Shown in pieces: positions 1 to 42,704 of a DNA stretch of 42,704 nt (position 1 is its first letter; every line of letters starts with the position of its first letter). The DNA lies in sequence record SRR16133337_22365; one strand, written 5' to 3'. The notes below the pieces were generated by a model, which saw only the letters and a program-made list of their open reading frames with translations, was not told the origin of the DNA and made no database searches. The position numbers and the translations under genes were made by a program.

Positions 1-30
1 TCATTTACCCACCCAGCCTGTGATGATGCA
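1..30. repeat. 30-bp terminal direct repeat (left copy); probable circular-assembly overlap
   Basis: TCATTTACCCACCCAGCCTGTGATGATGCA at 1-30 is identical to 42675-42704 and lies inside a gene that reads through the junction. Confidence 0.95.
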
Positions 31-920
31 CCTTGTGCTGCTCCCTGAATGTTTAAGACGTTAATATAGTTAAGCCAAAAATTAGAATAACCTATGCTAG
101 AGTTGGTTGGTGAATCGGAGTTCTCAACATCGAGCTTTAATGATGCGCACACATCTATGGTTATGTCTTGATTTTTAGTTCCTTTAACAACGCAAAGAGG
201 TGTTGTTTCATCTCTAGCTTCATCGCTTCTAATTCTTGTTATTGACTGTCTTTTATTTAGCGAAGAGTTTGAATCTCCACCAATTACGCAAAACCAAGAC
301 GTATCTCCAGTGAAGTCAAGTATACCGTCAATTTCAACCTCAACCCCTCTAAAGTCAACAAGTCCTGAACCCTCAAGCTTAATTGTTCCGCTGCCTATTA
401 GTTTTGATTCTGATGATTTGCAGTAATCTATAGCGCTAATAACAATGGCGTTGTTAAGCGATGAGCTTGCTGATATCTCGCCAAAAGCCTCAATATCAAC
501 TGGCCCAATCTCTTTGAAGTCTGAAATATCTCCAGACGCATCTGAAATCCTCTTCCAAATTGTCAGCGACGTTCTACACTTGTCACCAACTTCCGCAGCA
601 ATAGGAACCCCAGCAAGCATATCATCGACATTATCGTAAACTATGTCTGTGTAATTACTTGCGTTATTTGCAACCACCGATTTAATTGAATCCAAAATCT
701 GAGGGTTTGTAACGCTGTCAGGGTTTCCGTTTGCAGCAATACCAGCCTCAGTTAGTGCGGATTGCTTAAAGCCTTCCCAGTCATTGCCAACGCGCTGATC
801 TAGAGGTGATCCATCATTTGATACTCCTGGGTTGGTTTCATTTTTTAAAGACCCGTCTGGGTATGCCCCATCTGGCGGATTAGCTCTTACTCCGAATTCA
901 TCTGTTACTCTGATAGCCAT
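1..920 (-). CDS. Tailspike / receptor-binding protein, 5' part; continues across the circular junction to 41762, about 610 aa in total
   Basis: ATG at 920 overlaps the upstream stop (TAATG). Open frame MAIRVTDEFGVRANPPDGAYPDGSLKNETNPG... runs to position 1 and is in frame with ORF 41762..42529 once the overlap is removed. VDIEAFG...NNAIVISAIDYC resembles a beta-helix cap. Missed by the ORF track. Confidence 0.85.
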   Translation of the reverse strand, partial: MAIRVTDEFGVRANPPDGAYPDGSLKNETNPGVSNDGSPLDQRVGNDWEGFKQSALTEAGIAANGNPDSVTNPQILDSIKSVVANNASNYTDIVYDNVDDMLAGVPIAAEVGDKCRTSLTIWKRISDASGDISDFKEIGPVDIEAFGEISASSSLNNAIVISAIDYCKSSESKLIGSGTIKLEGSGLVDFRGVEVEIDGILDFTGDTSWFCVIGGDSNSSLNKRQSITRIRSDEARDETTPLCVVKGTKNQDITIDVCASLKLDVENSDSPTNSSIGYSNFWLNYINVLNIQGAAQGASSQAGWVN

Positions 921-9026: not shown

Positions 9027-9221
9027 TTAGTTTTGAACTGGATGTAAAGGTAACGGCATCCAGTGAGTAAACTGCCTACCATTACCATCTATTAGAGCTT
9101 CTGGTTTTTTATATTTAGCAGCGTAACCACTAATAAATCCACACTTAACACCAACGGTCTTTGTTGCAAATAAGTAATGACCTTCATCTGGAAGTTGGTC
9201 TTTTATATCAATCCACATCAC
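9027..9221 (-). CDS. DUF551-like protein
   Basis: WIDIKDQLP...FTHWMPLP signature. Confidence 0.8.
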   Translation of the reverse strand: MMWIDIKDQLPDEGHYLFATKTVGVKCGFISGYAAKYKKPEALIDGNGRQFTHWMPLPLHPVQN

Positions 9222-9239
9222 TCTTCTCTCTCTTGTTGT

Positions 9240-9765: not shown

Positions 9766-9936
9766 TTAAATCTCCAGGTACATTAAAAGTTCATGCTCAT
9801 TATCGGATTTGATATCGACAATGCGCCAAGTTAAACCGCGATGTTTGAATGTTGCTTTGCTGCCGTATTTCTCCAAGACTTCTTGAACGTGGAATCTTGT
9901 TTTAGAGTTCTTCTTGAATCTGTATGTGTCTTTCAT
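9766..9936 (-). CDS. Hypothetical protein (56 aa)
   Basis: MKDTYRFKKNSKTRFHVQEVLEKYG...; TAATG coupling to upstream gene; below the ORF-track cutoff. Confidence 0.6.
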   Translation of the reverse strand: MKDTYRFKKNSKTRFHVQEVLEKYGSKATFKHRGLTWRIVDIKSDNEHELLMYLEI

Positions 9937-10316
9937 TAGCAAAACACCTGATTGATTAGTTGATCGTTTCTAGTGGCTTGGTAAATGCACACTTGTTGTT
10001 TTGGCTCTTTCTTCTTGCGGCTGCGCTTGCGAGGGGTAAAGAATCCGACCAGCTTATAACTAGATTTATTGCTCGACTTGTTTAGCACTCTAATGCCGTG
10101 AATCGTGTTTAGGTTTGAAACCTTTTTGATTACGTCGTCAGATGTAGTGCCAAGCTCTCTGGCAAGCTCTGCAACGCTTGTGTTTACGTCAGATAATGCA
10201 TTGGTGTACAGAGTTGTTAAAAGTTGCTTGGTGAGTATTGAGCGCATCTTTTTGCGTCTAGCGATAAATTCAATCTCAAACTCTTCTTTGGTGTTTTTGT
10301 GTAAGGTAATCATCAC
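9936..10316 (-). CDS. Putative helix-turn-helix DNA-binding protein
   Basis: SVAELARELGTTSDDVIKKVSNL HTH-like segment and basic tail. Confidence 0.6.
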   Translation of the reverse strand: MMITLHKNTKEEFEIEFIARRKKMRSILTKQLLTTLYTNALSDVNTSVAELARELGTTSDDVIKKVSNLNTIHGIRVLNKSSNKSSYKLVGFFTPRKRSRKKKEPKQQVCIYQATRNDQLINQVFC

Positions 10317-10326
10317 TCTTTCCTTA

Positions 10327-11222: not shown

Positions 11223-11259
11223 TACCCCATCAAAACGATAACGCATTAATGGAGAAAGA

Positions 11260-11451
11260 GTGATGAGTGATAAATTAAGCCTAACCAAGAAGCAGATTAA
11301 GCTTGTTAATTTAATGGAGAAGTGCGGATACCTTCGTGAGCATGAGATTGTTGAGTCTGAGTACCCGAAGAGTCTTGTTAGTGCGCTTATTGATAAGGGC
11401 GTGATAGCAAGAGTTATTGGCACTGATAAACTAATTTCAATGGTGGGTTAG
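11260..11451 (+). CDS. Hypothetical small winged-helix-like protein
   Basis: LTKKQIKLVNLM...LVSALIDKGVI; GGAG RBS. Confidence 0.6.
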   Translation: MMSDKLSLTKKQIKLVNLMEKCGYLREHEIVESEYPKSLVSALIDKGVIARVIGTDKLISMVG

Positions 11452-11530: not shown

Positions 11531-11938
11531 GTGATGAATTACGAAGAGATGAGTGACTTTGAGATTAATAAGCTGGTAGTTGATAAGCACTTACGCATGT
11601 TTGTTAATGAAAGCAAATCAAGAGGAAAGCTTGAAAGTGACGTTTGGGTTTTTGATTCAGAAGGATTGCCAAGAAACACGAACTACAACCCATGCAATAA
11701 CCCATCAGACGCATGGCCTATTATTGTTGAGAATAATATTAGCATGCTTGCTGATAGTGATTACACGCTAGACCGTCACTTACATAAGTTTAAACTTAAC
11801 TTTACTGGGCGTTATGTTGCAAGTGCATTTCCTGTAATGAGTGATGGATTCAATTGCGATGAGTTGCAAGTTGTAGATAAAAACCCACTACGCGCGGCAA
11901 TGATTTGTTTCTTAAAAATGAAGGATGCAGAAAAATGA
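11531..11938 (+). CDS. NinX/DUF2591-like protein
   Basis: MNYEEMSDFEINKLV, YNPCNNPSDAWPII and NPLRAAMICFLKMKD signature. Confidence 0.85.
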   Translation: MMNYEEMSDFEINKLVVDKHLRMFVNESKSRGKLESDVWVFDSEGLPRNTNYNPCNNPSDAWPIIVENNISMLADSDYTLDRHLHKFKLNFTGRYVASAFPVMSDGFNCDELQVVDKNPLRAAMICFLKMKDAEK

Positions 11939-13506: not shown

Positions 13507-14637
13507 CTAGTAAATAGTTAGGTCAACAGGGACTTTGTGAATAGCGCCAGCACGGAAGATGCGGACAACCATTGGTGCGGAAAGTCGCTCTGTACGGTCG
13601 CCGTCACTGATATCCAGGATATCTTCTGGGCGTGTCAGAATCTCATAACCAATAGTGTAAGTAGTTAAACCCGTTTCAGGCTTGATGTAATTACGTGGAC
13701 CCAAGTATCGGTTTTCAAGGTACTGAACAAGAACCTGCTGTGTAGCTGTAATCTCTGCCTGTTGGCCTGCTGGTGTTTGAGGCAGTTTGGTTGGAGAGTT
13801 AGCTGTCACGTTTGTGATACTTACCTTGATCGCATTAATTAAAGCTGATGAGTTAAATACATCGTCAATCCACTCGTTATTAGCAGAGTGAGTTTTAGAG
13901 TTGATGTATCGATTTTTCAACTTCTGACCTTGCAAGTCGATATCCGAAATGAAACCAATGTTCTTTTCGATAAGCGCGTTTTGCTCAGTTGGCGACAGGT
14001 CTTGCGGTGAAGTATTGCCAATTACCTTGTATTCACCGGTAATTGTCGATGCTTCAACAGAGTAGTTTACCGTAGCGAACCAGTTAAGAATCGGGAATGA
14101 TGCGTAACGGTCTAAAGGGTCGTATGTTGAATGACCAAAGCGATAACCCAATGCGTCAACTTGAGATGATACTGTAGATGTATCGCCGATGGTCAGAGCG
14201 TTAACATCTGATTCAGTGTATGCAAACCAAGTTTCGTTTGAGTTATTCCAGCCCCAAGCTAGCAGTGTATCTGCAGCATCATCGAACAAGTCGATAGTAT
14301 TTAGAGTGATGAACCACCAGAATTTAGCGCGAGCCTTGGTGTAGGTGTCAACGTAACTAGCATCAGCAGTCGCCTTTACGTATACGCGCAATTGACGCGT
14401 GCGAGGGTCAGCACCTAGCCACTTATTAGCAGCCTTGTAAGACTCTGAAGTCGTAAGGAAGCCATCCTCTGCGACCGCTGAAGATGTTGTGTAATCTCGG
14501 AATGTATCAGGAGCAAAGCCTACAGGGGCCTCGGATTCTGGTACGAACAAAACAGCAAAGCCAAAGTTTGCTGTTGATAAGCCACCCGGAACAAACCGTG
14601 TGGTTACTGGAACTATGTTATCGACACTATAAGACAT
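13507..14637 (-). CDS. Tail sheath protein (DUF3383-like)
   Basis: MSYSVDNIVPV, ITGEYK, KLPQTPAGQ, RAGAIHKV motifs. Confidence 0.9.
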   Translation of the reverse strand: MSYSVDNIVPVTTRFVPGGLSTANFGFAVLFVPESEAPVGFAPDTFRDYTTSSAVAEDGFLTTSESYKAANKWLGADPRTRQLRVYVKATADASYVDTYTKARAKFWWFITLNTIDLFDDAADTLLAWGWNNSNETWFAYTESDVNALTIGDTSTVSSQVDALGYRFGHSTYDPLDRYASFPILNWFATVNYSVEASTITGEYKVIGNTSPQDLSPTEQNALIEKNIGFISDIDLQGQKLKNRYINSKTHSANNEWIDDVFNSSALINAIKVSITNVTANSPTKLPQTPAGQQAEITATQQVLVQYLENRYLGPRNYIKPETGLTTYTIGYEILTRPEDILDISDGDRTERLSAPMVVRIFRAGAIHKVPVDLTIY

Positions 14638-14679: not shown

Positions 14680-15225
14680 TTAACTAATAGGAGTGATGGA
14701 TATATCTTCAGCTATTACCTCTCCATTTTCATTTTGAATCTGAATTGGAACTTTGTAAATCGCGTTAGTATCCTCTTCATTAATCTCACTATACATTAGG
14801 GTTACATTTAACTGTGCCCTGTTCTCCCAATTCTCAGACTGAAGTGCATTAAGGTTGTTTACTGCAGAGCTCTTTAACCATCCAATTTTGTTTTTGTATA
14901 GTAGCTCGGACACGCTAGGAAGCTTATTAGCTCCAAATACCTTTCGAGCGTACATGTGGGCATTACCTCTATAGAAGTTAATTGAAACATCAGTCTGGCA
15001 GTTAGAGATAAGTTCATGTTTAACACCTACGTACCCCATGGTTTGGTCTGCATTTGACATCCTAACTGCTGGCTGACTTCTTTGCCCGGTAGTTTGAGTT
15101 ACTGATATCGCGCAGTATTCACCATCCGGAGATGGGGCGTTAGGGTTCGATCTGATTACGTTAGGAACTCCAGTGACCTGTAGAACAATCTCTCTAATTA
15201 CTTTGTATATCTCAAGGTTAGTCAT
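14680..15225 (-). CDS. Neck / tail terminator protein
   Basis: NPNAPSPDGEY, SINFYRG, NWENRAQ motifs; precedes sheath. Confidence 0.75.
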   Translation of the reverse strand: MTNLEIYKVIREIVLQVTGVPNVIRSNPNAPSPDGEYCAISVTQTTGQRSQPAVRMSNADQTMGYVGVKHELISNCQTDVSINFYRGNAHMYARKVFGANKLPSVSELLYKNKIGWLKSSAVNNLNALQSENWENRAQLNVTLMYSEINEEDTNAIYKVPIQIQNENGEVIAEDISITPIS

Positions 15226-22513: not shown

Positions 22514-22540
22514 GAAAAGCCCCGCTAGTTGCGAGGCTTG
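22514..22540 (-). terminator. Intrinsic terminator
   Basis: AAGCCTCGC-AACTA-GCGGGGCTT followed by a T run. Confidence 0.8.
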
Positions 22541-22543
22541 GTG

Positions 22544-22612
22544 TTAATCTTCGTCGTAATCAGATTCAGTCGGAACTTCACTCATCCACCAGTCATTTAG
22601 GTAGTCGTCCAT
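22544..22612 (-). CDS. Acidic micropeptide (22 aa)
   Basis: AAGGAGAG RBS; MDDYLNDWWMSEVPTESDYDED. Confidence 0.45.
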   Translation of the reverse strand: MDDYLNDWWMSEVPTESDYDED

Positions 22613-22700
22613 GTTACTCTCCTTGCTCTAGTAGTTTATTGGTCATCCTCATCACTCTCTATTTAATTAGTTCTGGGTTTTACGGTTTGAAACCGCATAT

Positions 22701-23408
22701 CTATGCTTCTAGTAACTTTACTTCTTCAATCAACTTTTCTTTAAATCTAAGATTGAACATCTTAGTTAGCTTTTTCTTTCTATCTTCGTATGAGTCTCCG
22801 ACCTGAATAAACACTGTGTTAGCACGCTGCAAATCAATAACAGCTAGCATCTGTAAGTCTGTCATATAGTCTCGAATTGATTCGTTCTTTCCAATTTCGT
22901 GATAAGCCTTGTACTTGCTCGCCGTAACTCCAAGAACTATTCTGTTGATCATGTCAGATTCATTGCTGTAATGGTAATGCTTGGGCTCGTCGTGAATGTC
23001 TTTAATTGCATCAGTCATCGGTCTGAACTCAAGTTTTAGCGACTCTCTATGCTCAAGTTGCTTTTGATTCTCCATTGTCTTAACTTCGCAATCCAAGAAA
23101 TAAAGCCTAGCAAGCTTGCCCATCTCTGAGCTTTCAATCATTGCCAGTTGCTTAACCATGTCTGGGGTGCAGTGGTAGTTTGTTTCTTCACCACGGACAA
23201 CTTTGTCCACGGTTAAACAGTAATCAACATGCTCATCGAATCCATACTTTTCAATTCTGCGCTGAATCCACTTATGAAATGGAGTCTTCACGCCAAGCCA
23301 CTCATGAACAATACGAGCGTTAACCGCGGTAACAAATCCATTCTGCTTAGATGCTTGAAATGTTTTCTTTATCTCGTTAAACGTCTTTACTGGTAGGTGC
23401 TTCTTCAT
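22701..23408 (-). CDS. AntA/AntB-family antirepressor-like DNA-binding protein (probable ATG at 23408)
   Basis: VNARIVHEWLGVKTPFHKWIQRRIEKYGF...ARLYFLDCE (AntA-like); HYHYSNESDMINRIVLG C-terminal module. Confidence 0.8.
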   Translation of the reverse strand: MKKHLPVKTFNEIKKTFQASKQNGFVTAVNARIVHEWLGVKTPFHKWIQRRIEKYGFDEHVDYCLTVDKVVRGEETNYHCTPDMVKQLAMIESSEMGKLARLYFLDCEVKTMENQKQLEHRESLKLEFRPMTDAIKDIHDEPKHYHYSNESDMINRIVLGVTASKYKAYHEIGKNESIRDYMTDLQMLAVIDLQRANTVFIQVGDSYEDRKKKLTKMFNLRFKEKLIEEVKLLEA

Positions 23409-27709: not shown

Positions 27710-27731
27710 CTTATTGTTCCTTACTTATTAA

Positions 27732-28502
27732 TTAGTTTTTAAAGTCAATCTTATAAAAGTCAAAGGACTTATCAGACCTAAAGTCGTAACAGAAATCAAA
27801 CGGCTCACAATCAAACTCGCCAAGATCCTCGATACATTCAATTGCAAGAGCCCTGAAGTACTCAAGGTATTCACCGATCGTGTCGAAGCTTTCAAAGTCT
27901 TTACTAGGAGTGAACGAGTGCACCCCGCAATCAGAGACCACAACAAAAGCAGCGCATCCAGCGTCATTATTAACAATGCTCATAGCTTGCTCTGCCGATG
28001 AGATGAGCGATGCACACTTATTAGCTGCATCCTTATTGAAGATATTTACATCAACAAGATAATTAGAAACTGACAGCTTGATAGAGTCGCTATGGTAATC
28101 ATAAGACCCACTATCAATAACCAATCGAATTAAAACTTCCGGATTCGACATGGCAAGTGAAGACCATGCTATCGACTGAGAAAGGTTTGTTAGTTCATCA
28201 TTACCAGTGGTCGATTTTGATTTGGGTTCTGAGTTATTAATAACAACGCGCTTCGCAAGTTCTACTGCAAAATCAACTGACTGACAATACCACTCGCCGA
28301 TCATTCTATCTCCCATAGATGATTTTATTATCGACTCGCAACTGAAATGGTTTCCTATCAACTCAGAACTCCAGCAACACTTAACTTCAAAGCCTGACGA
28401 TGAACTTATCTCTCTCATTCTTCTGCTAACGTCAGAAGTTGCTCCAACCTTAATTAAGTTCGTATCCTTGCAGTGAGCTATATAAACATATCCATCACTC
28501 AT
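27732..28502 (-). CDS. T5orf172/GIY-YIG-like protein with acidic C-terminal extension
   Basis: GYVYIA...IKVGATSDVSRRMREI...GEWY motif. Confidence 0.75.
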   Translation of the reverse strand: MSDGYVYIAHCKDTNLIKVGATSDVSRRMREISSSSGFEVKCCWSSELIGNHFSCESIIKSSMGDRMIGEWYCQSVDFAVELAKRVVINNSEPKSKSTTGNDELTNLSQSIAWSSLAMSNPEVLIRLVIDSGSYDYHSDSIKLSVSNYLVDVNIFNKDAANKCASLISSAEQAMSIVNNDAGCAAFVVVSDCGVHSFTPSKDFESFDTIGEYLEYFRALAIECIEDLGEFDCEPFDFCYDFRSDKSFDFYKIDFKN

Positions 28503-28627
28503 TTCTTTGATTCCTTTTTTATTCTTCGCTGCCTAGCCTTTTGGCACTTGGCCGCGCCGCATGTCTTTGCATCTTTGCGCTTTATCACTTCAACCCCGCA
28601 CTCAGGGCACTTAAGAGTTATATACAT
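28499..28627 (-). CDS. Small zinc-finger regulator (42 aa)
   Basis: MYITLKCPECGVEVIKRKDAKTCGAAKCQKARQRR...; AGGAGG RBS; ATGA coupling to the next gene. Confidence 0.7.
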   Translation of the reverse strand: MYITLKCPECGVEVIKRKDAKTCGAAKCQKARQRRIKKESKK

Positions 28628-28645
28628 AACCACCTCCTGAGATTG

Positions 28646-28675
28646 ATAATAGTCCACCTTATCACGGACTGTCAA
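28646..28675 (-). promoter_or_regulatory. Sigma70 promoter with inverted-repeat operator
   Basis: TTGACA-18-TATTAT; AGTCC(28651-28655)/GGACT(28666-28670). Confidence 0.7.
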
Positions 28676-28697
28676 CATTAATCTGGACATTTTAAGC

Positions 28698-28767
28698 AAA
28701 AAAAAAACCACCCGAGAAAGGTGGTTAAAAAGTAGAGTGATGATATAAGGTCGAGTGATGACGTTAT
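28698..28767 (-). ncRNA. Candidate ~70-nt trans-acting sRNA with two UCAUCACUC seeds and an intrinsic terminator
   Basis: TATACT -10 at 28779-28774; seeds at 28761-28753 and 28743-28735; AACCACC-TTTCTCG-GGTGGTT hairpin running into a T tract. Confidence 0.55.
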
Positions 28768-28889
28768 GAGTTGAGTATAGCGCTTAATGAGGTAGAAAGA
28801 AACTCTCCTGTACTACACAGACAAATACGCCATCTTCATCACACATCAGTATTCCTTGTTCGGTGTCGATGAAGAAGTATCCTGGGAAC

Positions 28890-29051
28890 TCAATCATCAC
28901 TATAGCGTTCATCTTCGAAGTTGCACTCACCAAACATTGCAGACTGAGCTTTACCAGCTAGCTCCTCTGCCTTTCGTTTAATGATTTGGTATCGAGAATC
29001 AAAGTAACCTCTAACCTCTGAGCTATCTTGTTCCACTTCTGATTTTTTCAT
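28890..29051 (-). CDS. Hypothetical protein (53 aa)
   Basis: MKKSEVEQDSSEVRGYFDSRYQIIKRKAEEL...; AAGGTG RBS. Confidence 0.5.
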   Translation of the reverse strand: MKKSEVEQDSSEVRGYFDSRYQIIKRKAEELAGKAQSAMFGECNFEDERYSDD

Positions 29052-29055
29052 GTCA

Positions 29056-29361
29056 TCACCTTGTTAGTATTAAACCCATAACAGCAGCAACTAGTGACAA
29101 CACAACAGCTCTTTTAATCCAGATAATAACCTGGTCGTCAGATTGTCTAATTGCTTCTTTCTTATCTAGTTCAGCGGTCTTTTGCTCAACCTTCTCAACT
29201 CTTGATTCTAACTTCTCGTGAGACTTAACCATATGTCTAATCTCACCAGTCAGCTCAACTGTCGCCTTTGTCGATTGCTTTATCTCTGAAGCGAGAGTTA
29301 CAACCGTCTCCCGCATCAAATCGACATCTTTCTCTAGGCTGGAAATTTTCTCTGCGCTCAT
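29056..29361 (-). CDS. Coiled-coil protein with C-terminal membrane anchor (XhlA/holin-like)
   Basis: Heptad-rich soluble region followed by AVVLSLVAAVMGLIL. Confidence 0.6.
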   Translation of the reverse strand: MSAEKISSLEKDVDLMRETVVTLASEIKQSTKATVELTGEIRHMVKSHEKLESRVEKVEQKTAELDKKEAIRQSDDQVIIWIKRAVVLSLVAAVMGLILTR

Positions 29362-29494
29362 TGTGAATACCTAAGTTATAAATTACCAAGCCCCACGCTA
29401 CAGCAAGAACAACAGCCATAACTGCAAATATGATCATTAATTCCATTGTTAGCCCTGACTTTTTTATTCATTATACTCTTCAGTAGGTTAATTC

Positions 29495-29683
29495 TCAATC
29501 AAGCAACTCTCTTCTTCTTGACTGTGAGCGCGTTCTAGGTGTTCTACATCGCATCATTACCACATGATTAGGCGTGTGATATGGAGAGCAAGACATCACA
29601 GTGTATAAGCGCCATATGGTCGATTGAGCAACAGCGCCAACAACAAGAGTGACGCACAATGCCATGATAATCCTTCTCTTCAT
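29495..29683 (-). CDS. Hypothetical membrane/exported protein
   Basis: MKRRIIMALCVTLVVGAVA N-terminal hydrophobic segment. Confidence 0.5.
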   Translation of the reverse strand: MKRRIIMALCVTLVVGAVAQSTIWRLYTVMSCSPYHTPNHVVMMRCRTPRTRSQSRRRELLD

Positions 29684-29771
29684 ATCGTCCATCCAGTAAG
29701 TGAGCAAGCAATAGCAAATGCAAACATTGAGAAATAGGCCGCTCCTATTGCAACGGCCATGTATAGAAAGG

Positions 29772-29999
29772 TTAGCTTGATGTGGTGCATGGCGAGTCTG
29801 GAATCTTCATCCAGTGAGTAACACAGTCGGCGTATAGCTTTATTTTATTTTTGCACTTGTCATCCCAATACCAAAACTTGTTGTTTTTTGGGTTGTAAAA
29901 GCAATTGCAAATTCGACCCGTCAAGTCTTGATAGTCAACCCAGATATCAACACACTCATCGACCGGAACTTTCTCTTTATTAATATCAATCCACATCAC
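29772..29999 (-). CDS. DUF551-like protein (second copy)
   Basis: WIDINKEKVP...VTHWMKIPDSP signature. Confidence 0.8.
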   Translation of the reverse strand: MMWIDINKEKVPVDECVDIWVDYQDLTGRICNCFYNPKNNKFWYWDDKCKNKIKLYADCVTHWMKIPDSPCTTSS

Positions 30000-30009
30000 T
30001 CTTACTCCG

Positions 30010-30378
30010 TTATTTGTTTAGCGCTTCAGTTGCAATATTTCGGTAATAATCTCTCTGCCCATTAGATCCAATGTCTAATCTTTTTTCGAAACTCAACTCA
30101 TCCCATGCTTTGATTCGAGTTAAAGCCTCACGCAACTCTGCATTCTCTTCAGCTAGTCTGGATTTCTCCTCAACCACTAAAGCCATCATGTCAGTTTTAG
30201 CTTTTAGCTCCTCACTCATGGCTTTAACTGAACTCTTATTTGAAATTGTAATCTCAAACTCTTCACCAGTTTCTAAGTGATCAAAGACTCCACCACAAAA
30301 ATTAATTCCACCAGCTGTCATGGCGTCAGCTATTGATTGTAAATCTGAATCAACGTTAAACTTCTCAATATCACTCAT
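30010..30378 (-). CDS. Hypothetical coiled-coil protein
   Basis: LAEENAELREAL heptads; operon position. Confidence 0.65.
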   Translation of the reverse strand: MSDIEKFNVDSDLQSIADAMTAGGINFCGGVFDHLETGEEFEITISNKSSVKAMSEELKAKTDMMALVVEEKSRLAEENAELREALTRIKAWDELSFEKRLDIGSNGQRDYYRNIATEALNK

Positions 30379-30456
30379 CTTCCAAACTCCATTATCCAGT
30401 TAAAATTCCATGCTAGCGCTATTATCGAAGGGATTAGCATGGTTATTAGTTCTTGT

Positions 30457-30663
30457 TTACGTGTCACTTACAATAATCATCATGTGTTTGAAGAACTTCT
30501 CTTCATCGTGTACATAGTCGTCGTGACCGTTATCGAATCTATCAGCCCAGAAAGCCTCTTCGTCCTTTAGCCATTTAACCTTGTACGTGCGGAAGAATTT
30601 ATCTTGACCGTGTGTTACTAGGAATGTTTCGCCTGTCTTTGGTGGTTCAGTTACCGTTTTCAT
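30457..30663 (-). CDS. Hypothetical protein
   Basis: MKTVTEPPKTGETFLV...; ATGA coupling. Confidence 0.6.
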   Translation of the reverse strand: MKTVTEPPKTGETFLVTHGQDKFFRTYKVKWLKDEEAFWADRFDNGHDDYVHDEEKFFKHMMIIVSDT

Positions 30664-30824
30664 ACAAACGCCCATAGGTAGAGGATACCGCCAAGAAAGC
30701 CACCACATGCAATCACAGCGGCAATGTATTTAAGTTGACCCCATAGCGTTAAGAACTGCATCGCTACGTGGTCGCTGTGCTCATTGATTAATTCCGATTG
30801 AGCTAGAGTGTTATGCTTGTTCAT
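30660..30824 (-). CDS. Small membrane protein (54 aa)
   Basis: MNKHNTLAQSELIN...YIAAVIACGGFLGGILYLWAFV; ATGA coupling at both ends. Confidence 0.6.
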   Translation of the reverse strand: MNKHNTLAQSELINEHSDHVAMQFLTLWGQLKYIAAVIACGGFLGGILYLWAFV

Positions 30825-30979
30825 TTCTTACCCTTACTTGCTAGTGATTCAATTCTATCCAGCGCATTAAATGTTAGTTGCCTAACCGCCATATTAAAGT
30901 TACCTTCACAGTGCTCGTTCGCGTAATCTTGAATCTTATCTACCAGTTTCTTATCTTTAAAATCAATTAGCTTTTTCAT
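30821..30979 (-). CDS. Ribbon-helix-helix regulator (52 aa)
   Basis: MKKLIDFKDKKLVDKIQDYANEHCEGNFNMAVRQL; GGAG RBS; first gene after the promoter. Confidence 0.7.
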   Translation of the reverse strand: MKKLIDFKDKKLVDKIQDYANEHCEGNFNMAVRQLTFNALDRIESLASKGKK

Positions 30980-31007
30980 ATTAACTCCGTATCGTTTCCA
31001 TATACAC

Positions 31008-32253: not shown

Positions 32254-32293
32254 TTAACCTCTATAGAAAAGGCGTCACAAAGACGCCTGTTAA

Positions 32294-37278: not shown

Positions 37279-37479
37279 ATGAAGCAACTAGGCGTTAAAC
37301 ATCCAGAGAAGCAAATCTTACAGGTTTCAGACCTTATGGCGTGCTTAGGTACAAATCAAACTGATACGGTTCGTGCGGCGATGTATCTTGGAATGCAGCA
37401 ACTTAAGGAGTTAGCTGCGAGAGATAAAGAGTCAGCTCAAGAGCTTTTAGCGGTAACAGCATTCAAGGTAATGCAATAA
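37279..37479 (+). CDS. Ribbon-helix-helix-like regulator (66 aa)
   Basis: MKQLGVKHPEKQILQVSDLMACLGTNQTDTVRAAMYLG; first gene after the promoter. Confidence 0.6.
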   Translation: MKQLGVKHPEKQILQVSDLMACLGTNQTDTVRAAMYLGMQQLKELAARDKESAQELLAVTAFKVMQ

Positions 37480-37535
37480 AAGAAAAACCACCCGGCAAGG
37501 TGGCTTTAAACATAGATAACAAAAGGATTATAGCA
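37478..37535 (-). ncRNA. Candidate OOP-like short antisense RNA with its promoter
   Basis: Extended -10 TGCTATAAT (37535-37527); about 40 nt ending in GCCACC-TTGCCG-GGTGGT plus a T run. Confidence 0.55.
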
Positions 37536-41728: not shown

Positions 41729-41762
41729 GAAACCCCCAGTGATTAGCTGGGGGTTGTTTGTT
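41729..41762. terminator. Terminator between convergent early and tail operons
   Basis: AACCCCCAG-TGATTAG-CTGGGGGTT. Confidence 0.8.
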
Positions 41763-42704
41763 TAGTTTAGCTTTGGAGTGTTAAATGGCACTACGTAAGA
41801 TGATGGCAGTCTAACCTCTGCACCGTTTGTCCTTGTTGTTACTTTTGGGTTTTTGATTGACACGTTCAACCACCTAAAGCTGGCAGCAATACTGCCACAA
41901 ATAACGGAAATTGATATAAATCTACACCCAGATCTGTTGATGTAAAGCCTTGAGTTTGTGACATTTGTTGTTTGAATGTAACTGCCAAAGCTTGCGCTAG
42001 GAAATCCAACCGTTACAACATCATCAGAGCCTGGAGCCATGACGTCACCGTTATTATCATATCCGTGAATAATTAGCCTATACCCTCCGCCAGACCATCC
42101 ACCACTTGATATCGTAATTAGGGAGTCCTTAGTTGTTGATATTTGGCACTGTGGAGTTCTGCATATTACTGAGAATGCGCTGCATGATATGTCTTTACCT
42201 GATTTTGACAGGTAGTAAGCACCATCAGGCGTTCCATTTTCATTTGTGTTAGTCCAGTTTCCCACACCTTGTATGTTGCACTTTGTTGGTGATACGTCAT
42301 TATCAAATAGAATTACATCAGAATTTAGAGCAAATGCCGGGTGCTCAGAATAAGCGGGATTGTCGTTACTAAATACAATATTCCCTCTACCTAGATCTAA
42401 ATAGTTCCAGTCGTATACAGGCTGATCTGCGAATGATTCAACCCAACTTACGATCACTTTGTTGTTTATCGTTCTTGATGAGAACGAAATTGCGTTGTCG
42501 TCAGCGCTCTCAAGTCTTACACTGTTCATGGTGTTATCATTGCCAGCATTGAAGGTTATGGTTGATCCACCCTCAAACGTTCCTCCATGAAAGATGTTAT
42601 TGTTGTGTGAGTATGTGTCTGGATCTTCATCTCCAACTATTAACTTTGTGCATCGCTTTAGGTAGAAAGTATTCTCATTTACCCACCCAGCCTGTGATGA
42701 TGCA
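41762..42704 (-). CDS. Tailspike / receptor-binding protein, 3' part of the junction-spanning gene starting at 920
   Basis: In-frame continuation ...AGWVNENTFYLKRCTK...SHNNNIFHGGTFEG...; Asn/Ser/Gly-rich beta-strand pattern. Confidence 0.85.
   Translation of the reverse strand, partial: ASSQAGWVNENTFYLKRCTKLIVGDEDPDTYSHNNNIFHGGTFEGGSTITFNAGNDNTMNSVRLESADDNAISFSSRTINNKVIVSWVESFADQPVYDWNYLDLGRGNIVFSNDNPAYSEHPAFALNSDVILFDNDVSPTKCNIQGVGNWTNTNENGTPDGAYYLSKSGKDISCSAFSVICRTPQCQISTTKDSLITISSGGWSGGGYRLIIHGYDNNGDVMAPGSDDVVTVGFPSASFGSYIQTTNVTNSRLYINRSGCRFISISVICGSIAASFRWLNVSIKNPKVTTRTNGAEVRLPSSYVVPFNTPKLN
42675..42704. repeat. 30-bp terminal direct repeat (right copy)
   Basis: Identical to 1-30. Confidence 0.95.

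Follow-up and report, generated by a model that had tools for sequence, protein, structure and literature searches.

Described systems closest to the locus

The boundary or linker sequences of lambdoid phages and the PeSL elements of T4-type phages are short sequences at gene boundaries that serve as points of module exchange, and the c4 antisense RNA acts by two-site (a′/b′) pairing. Among regulatory RNAs, OppZ and CarZ of Vibrio cholerae are described as autoregulatory Hfq sRNAs derived from 3′ UTRs (PMC7398697). The c4 antisense RNA of phages P1 and P7 is described as masking, by short complementary stretches, the ribosome-binding region of a phage mRNA of the same operon, and VpdS of vibriophage VP882 and PreS of lambda as short trans-acting, Hfq-dependent phage RNAs, of which VpdS has targets in Vibrio among phage as well as host mRNAs (PMC12197685). 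In phage T4 a start-region motif of one gene class (GGAG in the case of RegB) lets one factor, RegB or RegA, switch that class off post-transcriptionally (PMC3014915). The part of the phage-RNA review available to us contains no example of a phage RNA acting, by way of a common start-codon motif, on an entire gene class of its own phage (PMC12197685).

The locus analyzed here is the minus-strand stretch 28779→28698 of a 42,704-nt sequence (the window), for which the original prediction proposed a late sRNA with its own promoter and two seeds antisense to a start motif of many of the phage's genes. With moderate confidence we read it as the 3′ UTR and terminator of an accessory transcript, lying on a mosaic joint where a vestigial start cassette in inverted orientation would have been duplicated or tandemly joined, its complementarity to many gene starts being a by-product. 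A functional base-pairing RNA is possible, and we put it forward tentatively. It would be the 3′ end of the unit's mRNA, processed or made from a weak internal promoter, and is predicted to be of the Hfq type; it would bind Hfq through a U-rich tract and a U tail, and its duplicated seed would pair across start codons with (R)AGAGUGAUGA, repressing the two final ORFs of the operon it comes from (an OppZ/CarZ-like feedback) and about 5–14 other non-structural genes in trans. In its favor, autoregulatory sRNAs derived from 3′ UTRs are established in V. cholerae, as described (PMC7398697), and Hfq-dependent phage sRNAs such as VpdS are described as well (PMC12197685).

Genome context and local transcription unit

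The genome is complete and circular (42.7 kb), with a 620-aa ORF spanning the window ends. At both the DNA and the protein level it matches Vibrio phages alone, in a mosaic fashion, its TerL is at most 61% identical to that of any phage in the searched collection, and 37 TerL loci from viral contigs have only terL in common with the window. The minus strand carries, before the terminator under study, Erf, an SSB-like protein, MazG, an endolysin, a spanin-like ORF and many small ORFs including a DUF551-type gene, and after it a promoter, a 42-aa Cys4 ORF, a T5orf172 gene, two unknown genes, terS, terL and the structural genes; Ant, a replication initiator, DnaB, NinB and NinG lie on the plus strand. 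Terminator-plus-promoter marks occur on the minus strand at 32288, 29758, 28726, 26633, 23603 and 22539. That the terminator at 28726 is one of this series speaks for an ordinary 3′ UTR, as does the setting in a circular Vibrio-phage genome. The local features, in the direction of the minus strand, are as follows (X2 is a partial relative described below).

29470–29498, minus: promoter-like site TTGAGA-17-TATAAT, 11/12 (consensus match only)
29056–29361, minus: 101-aa coiled-coil, tail-anchored ORF, first gene of the putative unit
28890–29051, minus: 53-aa ORF; its start region GGTGATGAC (29052–29059) matches seed 1 over 8 nt
28784–28912, minus: last ORF of the upstream unit, about 37–42 codons; an alternative start, ATG 28897, is preceded by TATAGTGATGAT
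28774–28779, minus: TATACT, proposed −10 box, a weak candidate from its sequence
28744–28761, minus: repeat unit 1, TCATCACTCGACCTTATA, with seed 1 at 28753–28761; in the part aligned to X2
28726–28743, minus: repeat unit 2, TCATCACTCTACTTTTTA, with seed 2 at 28735–28743 and the U-rich tract before the hairpin
28698–28726, minus: intrinsic terminator, stem 28726–28706 and then a T run (terminator scan and fold)
28646–28675, minus: sigma-70-type promoter-like site TTGACA-18-TATTAT, 11/12, for the next cassette
28499–28627, minus: 42-aa Cys4 basic ORF with an AGGAGG Shine-Dalgarno (SD) sequence, first gene 3′ of the terminator (weak PHROG match)
27732–28502, minus: T5orf172-domain gene (Pfam PF10544, 32.2 bits against a cutoff of 20), start ATGAGTGATGG with the 8-mer

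Judged by sequence, the 29498–29470 site is likely to be the start of the transcript that ends at the 28726–28698 terminator. Three ORFs (101, 53 and about 40 codons) follow it and end 23 nt before TATACT; with a promoter-like site and three ORFs directly upstream, the stretch is most simply a 3′ UTR. The unit would thus extend from the putative promoter over these three ORFs to the terminator, and the job of the stretch would be to end the accessory transcript and insulate the next cassette, which has a near-consensus promoter of its own. Third codon positions hold 10 of 16 X2 differences within 28811–28883 (last ORF) and 11 of 17 within 28902–29042 (53-aa ORF), counted by hand among the differences listed; since substitutions favor third positions, both ORFs look real, which is a further point for a 3′ UTR here. 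The 101-aa protein has no match in the phage collection by tblastn, one weak partial match in viral contigs and none in species-genome contigs, and the T5orf172 protein has no match in viral contigs or metagenome contigs.

The stretch had been described as ORF-free, and no credible ORF overlaps 28698–28779: the two that touch it are a plus-strand ORF of 33 aa with a TTG start and the downstream 42-aa ORF if extended, implausibly, to a GTG.

Sequence and predicted fold of the stretch

On the minus strand the order from 28779 to 28698 is TATACT-CAACTCATAACG-TCATCACTC-GACCTTATA-TCATCACTC-TACTTTTT-AACCACCTTTCTCGGGTGGTT-T run, with a 12-nt spacer between TATACT and the first TCATCACTC of this 82-nt stretch. 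This agrees letter for letter with the layout first proposed (two copies of TCATCACTC, the seeds, with spacers and a terminator). The terminator was called strong and is so, with 8 pairs (4 of them GC), a loop of 5 and a T run in the terminator scan; the hairpin letters are AACCACC-TTTCTCG-GGTGGTT, followed by the T run. Its 5′ arm is complementary at 9/9 positions to the SD region of the 42-aa Cys4 ORF.

The fold predicted for the 82-nt RNA has an energy of −13 kcal/mol (z = −4.4), which 0/200 shuffles equal, and in a 321-nt context z is −0.18. The predicted 82-nt fold leaves seed 2 unpaired and places seed 1 partly within a weak hairpin, as would suit a base-pairing RNA. UACUUUUUAA is a U-rich tract 5′ of the hairpin, and a U10 tail forms the 3′ end. 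Unpaired seeds, tract and tail together make an Hfq-binding layout, which counts against a simple 3′ UTR, and the 28726–28698 element is rho-independent with a long U tail, like the terminators of Hfq-dependent trans-acting sRNAs.

A search of Rfam had been suggested as a check and gave no family match to the stretch or elsewhere in the window: with Rfam 15 the whole window had 0 families at the gathering threshold, and in a local E-value search the best match had 21 bits against a threshold of 49.5, all matches being terminator-driven. This weighs against a functional RNA. The seeds resemble the 3′ end of 16S rRNA (AUCACCUC). The motif as an SD sequence was considered and rejected, its position (−5 to +3) being too near the AUG.

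The stretch has no credible promoter of its own, which favors a 3′ UTR and weakens the case for an independent RNA. TATACT at 28774–28779 has neither a −35 box (TTTCTT at 17 nt) nor a TG, was not reported by the promoter scan, and is one of 15 copies of TATACT in the window; a second copy of its 18-nt context is absent from the window even at 3 mismatches. For these reasons the class of "late-type" promoters to which it had been assigned is without evidence, and an own promoter of this kind is not supported. By our analysis the best version of the base-pairing idea would be a 3′-UTR-derived Hfq-type RNA and not a late sRNA with its own promoter.

Tandem repeat and the opposite strand

Both seeds are the cores of an 18-nt tandem repeat, 28726–28743 and 28744–28761, whose units are identical at 15/18 positions. 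The tandem repeat is a point for the 3′ UTR reading. All 3/3 differences between the units fall outside the 9-nt core, a point against that reading, with p only about 0.1 by our own arithmetic. On the plus strand 28744–28761 reads TATAAGGTCGAGTGATGA, that is, TAAGG resembling an SD sequence and, after 7 nt of spacer, an ATG with only three codons behind it. Read on this strand, each unit looks like a form of the phage's commonest accessory-gene start cassette (SD-like sequence, spacer, GTGATGA), and since the units have this form the complementarity to many starts is real. It would most simply be a by-product of an inverted, vestigial start cassette beside a terminator hairpin.

The hairpin has a second copy:

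37478–37516, plus: 82% over 40 nt, directly upstream of a real start region (gene at 37535)

Its spacing to the 37535 start region is similar to that at the 28726 hairpin, and a hairpin so placed before a real start is a point for the vestigial origin. Against that origin, extended similarity to real start regions is not significant: plus-strand similarity to the 10313 and 22652 start regions reaches slightly past the core (E = 0.5 and 1.4, respectively).

Complementary copies at gene starts

The window contains 13 copies of GAGTGATG against 1.27 ± 1.04 expected, a number reached in 0/100 shuffles, and 7 copies of AGAGTGATG against 0.39 expected. The excess of the GAGTGATG motif is seen in both orientations. 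Two more antisense copies are found within tail genes of the minus strand (14304 and 14691).

The longest complementary sites at or near starts are these.

10309–10319, minus: best complementary start region, 11 nt, 125-aa gene (−16.4 kcal/mol)
11257–11266, plus: complementary start region, 10 nt, 62-aa gene (match count and duplex energy)
9216–9224, minus: complementary start region, 9 nt; the gene begins MWIDI like the DUF551-type gene at 29996
29994–30002, minus: complementary start region, 9 nt, second DUF551-type paralog; edge of a 203-nt indel in relatives
22649–22658, minus: motif copy heading a 12-codon mini-ORF (MRMTNKLLEQGE)

All five had been listed with correct coordinates, including the 11 nt of the first, and the shorter 8-nt matches are likewise found at starts at 11534, 28502, 32973, 36579 and 36884. 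As to their being translation starts the list holds in part: 22649–22658 heads only a mini-ORF, and 9218 and 29996 are paralogous. These two genes are presumed, from their sequence, to be DUF551-type paralogs, and as paralogs with the same first codons they are not independent targets. The 22652 mini-ORF is followed on its 3′ side by a 21-codon ORF, then a terminator, then the portal promoter, and its KLLEQGE recurs at the C-terminus of an HNH endonuclease encoded by Vibrio phage 209E38-1; going by sequence, it is a remnant beside the portal gene and no real gene start. That one listed target is a mini-ORF and two are paralogous tells against a base-pairing RNA.

The targets had been thought to be early genes, but most of them lie in late or moron regions. 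The starts at 9218, 10313, 11263 and 11534 are within a moron island (8.7–12.5 kb) inside the structural region, and those at 28897, 29051 and 29996 belong to the stretch's own operon or lie a little upstream of it.

By crude gene calls (longest ORFs of at least 40 aa, start chosen by SD score, overlaps resolved by length, and the starts at 11263, 22652, 28897 and 28627 added by hand), complementarity of at least 8 nt is found at 0/31 structural or packaging starts and 14/51 others (Fisher p = 7e-4). This split used 82 of 91 starts, the 9 dropped being on the strand opposite to the local operon. It bears out the claim that no structural gene start carries the motif, and the suggested count of the motif and its enrichment at starts agrees with it: 13 copies for 1.27 expected, with complementary starts confined to non-structural genes. 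It is also what a class-specific regulator would predict, and thus a point for the base-pairing RNA and against an incidental origin. GTG stands directly before ATG (GTGATG) at 10/51 non-structural and 0/31 structural starts, and the commonest 8-mers in the region −20 to +10 of 92 starts are AGTGATGA (7 starts), AGAGTGAT (6) and GAGTGATG (6).

The complement of the 42-nt single-stranded part shares at least 8 nt with 15/92 start regions and at least 9 nt with 6/92, again in favor of base pairing. The minus-strand 42-mer itself matches 16/92 start regions; the genome maximum is 17, in windows antisense to real starts, and the candidate is the genome's most start-complementary 42-mer among those not themselves antisense to a start, which counts against a by-product. 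With automatic gene calls only, the score of the candidate 42-mer is 13, compared with 12 both for two coding 42-mers and for the 99.9th percentile; at 13 against 12 it is top-ranked yet no extreme outlier, a point against a dedicated RNA. Moreover, given that the motif is a general start feature, every inverted copy of it would collect many "targets".

Short-duplex energies are −13 to −16.6 kcal/mol at the six best sites (including mini-ORF 22652) and −4 to −10 kcal/mol at five structural starts taken as controls, a difference that favors base pairing. Full-length duplex folding of the 42-nt region with 51-nt start regions was uninformative (mean −13.6 kcal/mol; 57/92 at or below −12) and was therefore replaced by exact-match counts and short-duplex energies. 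By fold, match counts and energies, the seeds thus look in silico like those of a trans-acting sRNA, single-stranded and complementary to starts.

Within its own operon the stretch also resembles an OppZ/CarZ-type sRNA, both in position, between the stop of the last ORF (28784) and the terminator (28726–28698), and in predicted pairing. The start of the last ORF (28893–28904) is complementary to 28733–28744, the seed 2 region, at 11/12 positions (about 0.2 such pairs are expected by chance in 401 nt, by our own estimate), and 29052–29059 pairs with seed 1 over 8 nt. Both seeds thus match start regions of their own operon, those at 28897 and 29051, which argues for feedback pairing and against an incidental match.

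Relatives and mosaic joints

A search of sequencing runs found one run with the whole sequence and several with parts, none of them recorded as RNA. Contigs of four partial runs were aligned, of which X3–X5 leave parts of 28000–28740 uncovered and speak neither for nor against. The fourth, a 10.8-kb contig of run X2, aligns to 28745–29790 (48 differences, about 95% identity), 29994–30158 and 30370–31000. In it 27725–28744 (1020 nt) is replaced by 759 other letters (joint 27724→28745), and this joint is the exact boundary between repeat units 1 and 2. Seed 2, the terminator, the next promoter, the Cys4 ORF and the T5orf172 gene (27732–28502) all belong to the replaced segment, which begins with repeat unit 2, and seed 1 is in the aligned part. 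At least 39 of the 48 differences in 28745–29790 could be placed, the first at 28811; seed 1 is perhaps changed in X2, because 0–9 differences may fall in 28745–28810 or 29725–29790.

The conservation of the seeds, proposed as a check, therefore fails in this one relative, in which seed 2 and the terminator are replaced beside a flank (28745–29790) that is about 95% alike. A mosaic joint that splits the stretch in the only relative found counts against a functional RNA, and its position at the unit boundary is a point for the 3′ UTR reading; the 759 replacing letters may, on the other side, carry an equivalent seed and terminator.

The other two X2 joints also abut the motif and point the same way. 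At 29994 the joint reads GAGTGATG|TGG, and the body of the DUF551-type gene (203 nt) is missing in X2 and X4; at 30370 it reads ATGAGTGAT|ATT. From these sequences the motif may serve as a joining point for cassettes. The coincidence of joints and motif is confounded, because cassettes join at gene starts and the motif is a gene-start feature.

Searches of the phage, viral-contig, metagenome-contig and species-genome collections gave no relative of the region. Blastn of 28300–29400 found no relative in the phage collection; the terminator 25-mer had 0 matches in viral contigs; and a pattern of seeds plus hairpin had 0 in species-genome contigs and 5 in metagenome contigs, all unrelated repeats. 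A seed pattern with at least 120 matches in viral contigs was set aside as unspecific, the contigs being of mixed types and 120 loci being without homology to the region.

The motif is also found in other phages. Vibrio phage 209E38-1 has 6 copies of GAGTGATG (about 1.3 expected), three of them at or beside gene starts, and its MazG start is identical over 17 nt to the 10313 start; paired antisense copies were not found in that phage. Gene starts headed by the motif without paired antisense copies are a point for the 3′ UTR reading. Phage 1.090.B has 3 GAGTGATG copies. The start 17-mer TAAGGAAAGAGTGATGA has 8 matches in IMG/VR, which is the chance level, and is therefore no widespread cassette.

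Broader and other explanations

In its broadest form the base-pairing idea holds that the phage tags its non-structural genes with (R)AGAGUGAUGA, and that an Hfq-type RNA from the 3′ end of an accessory operon masks those starts with a duplicated anti-motif seed; this we consider doubtful. Such a multi-gene switch would throttle the whole gene class, the RNA's own operon included, and spare the structural genes.

A role at the DNA level is unlikely. Here (G)AGTGAT(G) copies in either orientation would be recombination edges, or the repeats, as direct repeats 50–85 bp upstream of the 28675 promoter, would be bound by a regulatory protein. In favor, genes for Erf and SSB are present in the phage, both orientations of the motif exceed expectation, and 3/3 X2 joints have their gene-start-side end at most 3 nt from a motif copy, including the inverted copy at 28745 (3/6 joint ends, about 4e-4 by chance in a rough estimate of our own). 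But this last point is confounded, as joints fall at gene starts anyway and the motif belongs to gene starts, and the chance-level count of the 17-mer start cassette in IMG/VR (8 matches) is a further point against recombination edges. Recombination inside the repeat would moreover leave one copy rather than two. Also against the DNA-level role are the 18-bp spacing, which is off helical phase, and the downstream promoter, which is near consensus with the hairpin in between.

A late unit of the lambda PR′/6S-RNA/tR′ type, in which a short constitutive transcript stops unless an antiterminator allows reading into the packaging genes, is very improbable: the terminator does lie just upstream of the terS-terL module and a −10-like TAACGT, which we liken to lambda's pause element, follows TATACT, but no Q-like or other antiterminator family was found in 37 proteins scanned (30 against PHROGs; 7 of those and 7 further ones against Pfam), the main ground for this low rating even though several small proteins have no family and absence is not proven, the lone TATACT is weak where a strong constitutive promoter would be needed, a near-consensus promoter follows the terminator and more terminator-promoter pairs stand before terS and the portal gene, and the terminator is replaced in X2.

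We thus retain a 3′ UTR and terminator on a mosaic joint as the best explanation. Sequence features, enrichment, joint and repeat are shown directly; where the transcript begins and ends, the vestigial origin and the want of a dedicated regulatory role are inferred. If the RNA reading were true, a phage RNA would regulate an entire gene class of its own phage by means of a common start-codon motif, and a multi-gene switch would be an RNA counterpart of T4 RegA/RegB. Even under the ordinary reading, the non-structural genes have a start context (GTGATG, 10/51 against 0/31) that is absent from the structural genes, and mosaic joints in a relative fall at motif copies. Start context and joints bear on the exchange and translation of accessory cassettes in marine Vibrio phages.

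Comparison with known systems

Like the lambdoid boundary sequences and the PeSL elements, the locus has a shared short sequence at joints; here there are only three joints in one relative, and they are confounded with gene starts. VpdS and PreS differ from the candidate in that no sequence or family relation to them was found, and the part of the review available to us mentions for neither of them a doubled seed directed at a start motif common to genes of the same phage (PMC12197685). With c4, as it is described, the candidate has in common that it would be a phage RNA with short complementarity to the ribosome-binding regions of mRNA of its own operon; c4 differs in lying upstream of its target, in being a structured, processed RNA and in having essentially one target. 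The likeness to RegA and RegB, in the account available, is one of logic, a short start-region motif marking one gene class; those factors are proteins (a nuclease and a repressor), whereas an RNA would play that part here, with the non-structural genes as the class.

The nearest parallel is with OppZ and CarZ, as far as their source describes them. The candidate, predicted from sequence, differs from these in having a duplicated seed that also matches many starts outside the operon and no sequence relation to either. It has in common with them the place at the 3′ end of an operon, the shared terminator, the complementarity to starts in the same operon, and the host genus.

Genome completeness
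A single minus-strand 620-aa ORF crosses the ends of the window (1-920 and 41762-42704), and the window is therefore an entire Vibrio phage genome, closed into a circle.

Genes with motif-bearing starts
The two seeds of the candidate RNA are complementary to a start-region motif that includes GTGATG, and the genes that carry it are here called "targets". The best of these is

9936-10313, minus strand, gene for a 125-aa protein

whose product has only sub-threshold Pfam matches, one to IF2_N (22.9 bits, cutoff 25.3) and another to an HTH domain.

The body of the DUF551-type gene (29791-29993, 203 nt) is missing from the relatives found in sequencing runs X2 and X4. In the X2 relative the start GAGTGATG is fused directly, at 29790, to the ATG that opens the following small membrane ORF, and in the X4 relative 17 different letters separate the two. 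The gene at 9027-9218 has the same first codons (MWIDI) as the DUF551-type gene and is presumed to be its paralog.

Two very short reading frames separate the portal gene from the gene that ends at 22701:

within 22540-22660, minus strand, mini-ORFs of 12 and 21 codons

The shorter one ends in KLLEQGE, resembling the C terminus of an HNH endonuclease encoded by Vibrio phage 209E38-1, and it is probably a leftover of a lost homing endonuclease.

The terminator and its surroundings
In the terminator stem, the 5′ arm (UAACCACCU, 28719-28727) is complementary at 9/9 positions to 28627-28635, where the next ORF has its SD and start region:

28499-28627, minus strand, gene for a 42-aa basic protein (CxxC-x12-C-x4-C) with an almost perfect SD and a promoter close to consensus

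By this pairing the arm could mask the start of the 42-aa ORF in read-through transcripts; transcripts from the promoter at 28675, just past the terminator, could not be masked in this way. A Pfam search with the 42-aa protein gave no match, and its PHROG match is weak and to a family of unknown function; it may be a nucleic-acid binding protein or a regulator. The terminator hairpin itself recurs immediately 5′ of the gene at 37535:

37478-37516, oriented as a minus-strand terminator, second copy of the hairpin (82%), within the plus-strand replication operon

Frequency and position of the motif
Two more copies of the motif run antisense to tail genes on the minus strand:

14302-14312 and 14691-14698, plus strand, motif copies

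and one of them is an 11-nt match, TAGAGTGATGA, the same as 28733-28743. GTGATG occurs 57 times in the whole window, where base composition predicts about 19.5. With starts taken from crude gene calls, GTG immediately precedes the ATG at 10/51 non-structural starts but at none of the 31 structural ones. Two other Vibrio phages contain 33 and 45 copies of GTGATG, just 2-4 of them at ORF starts.
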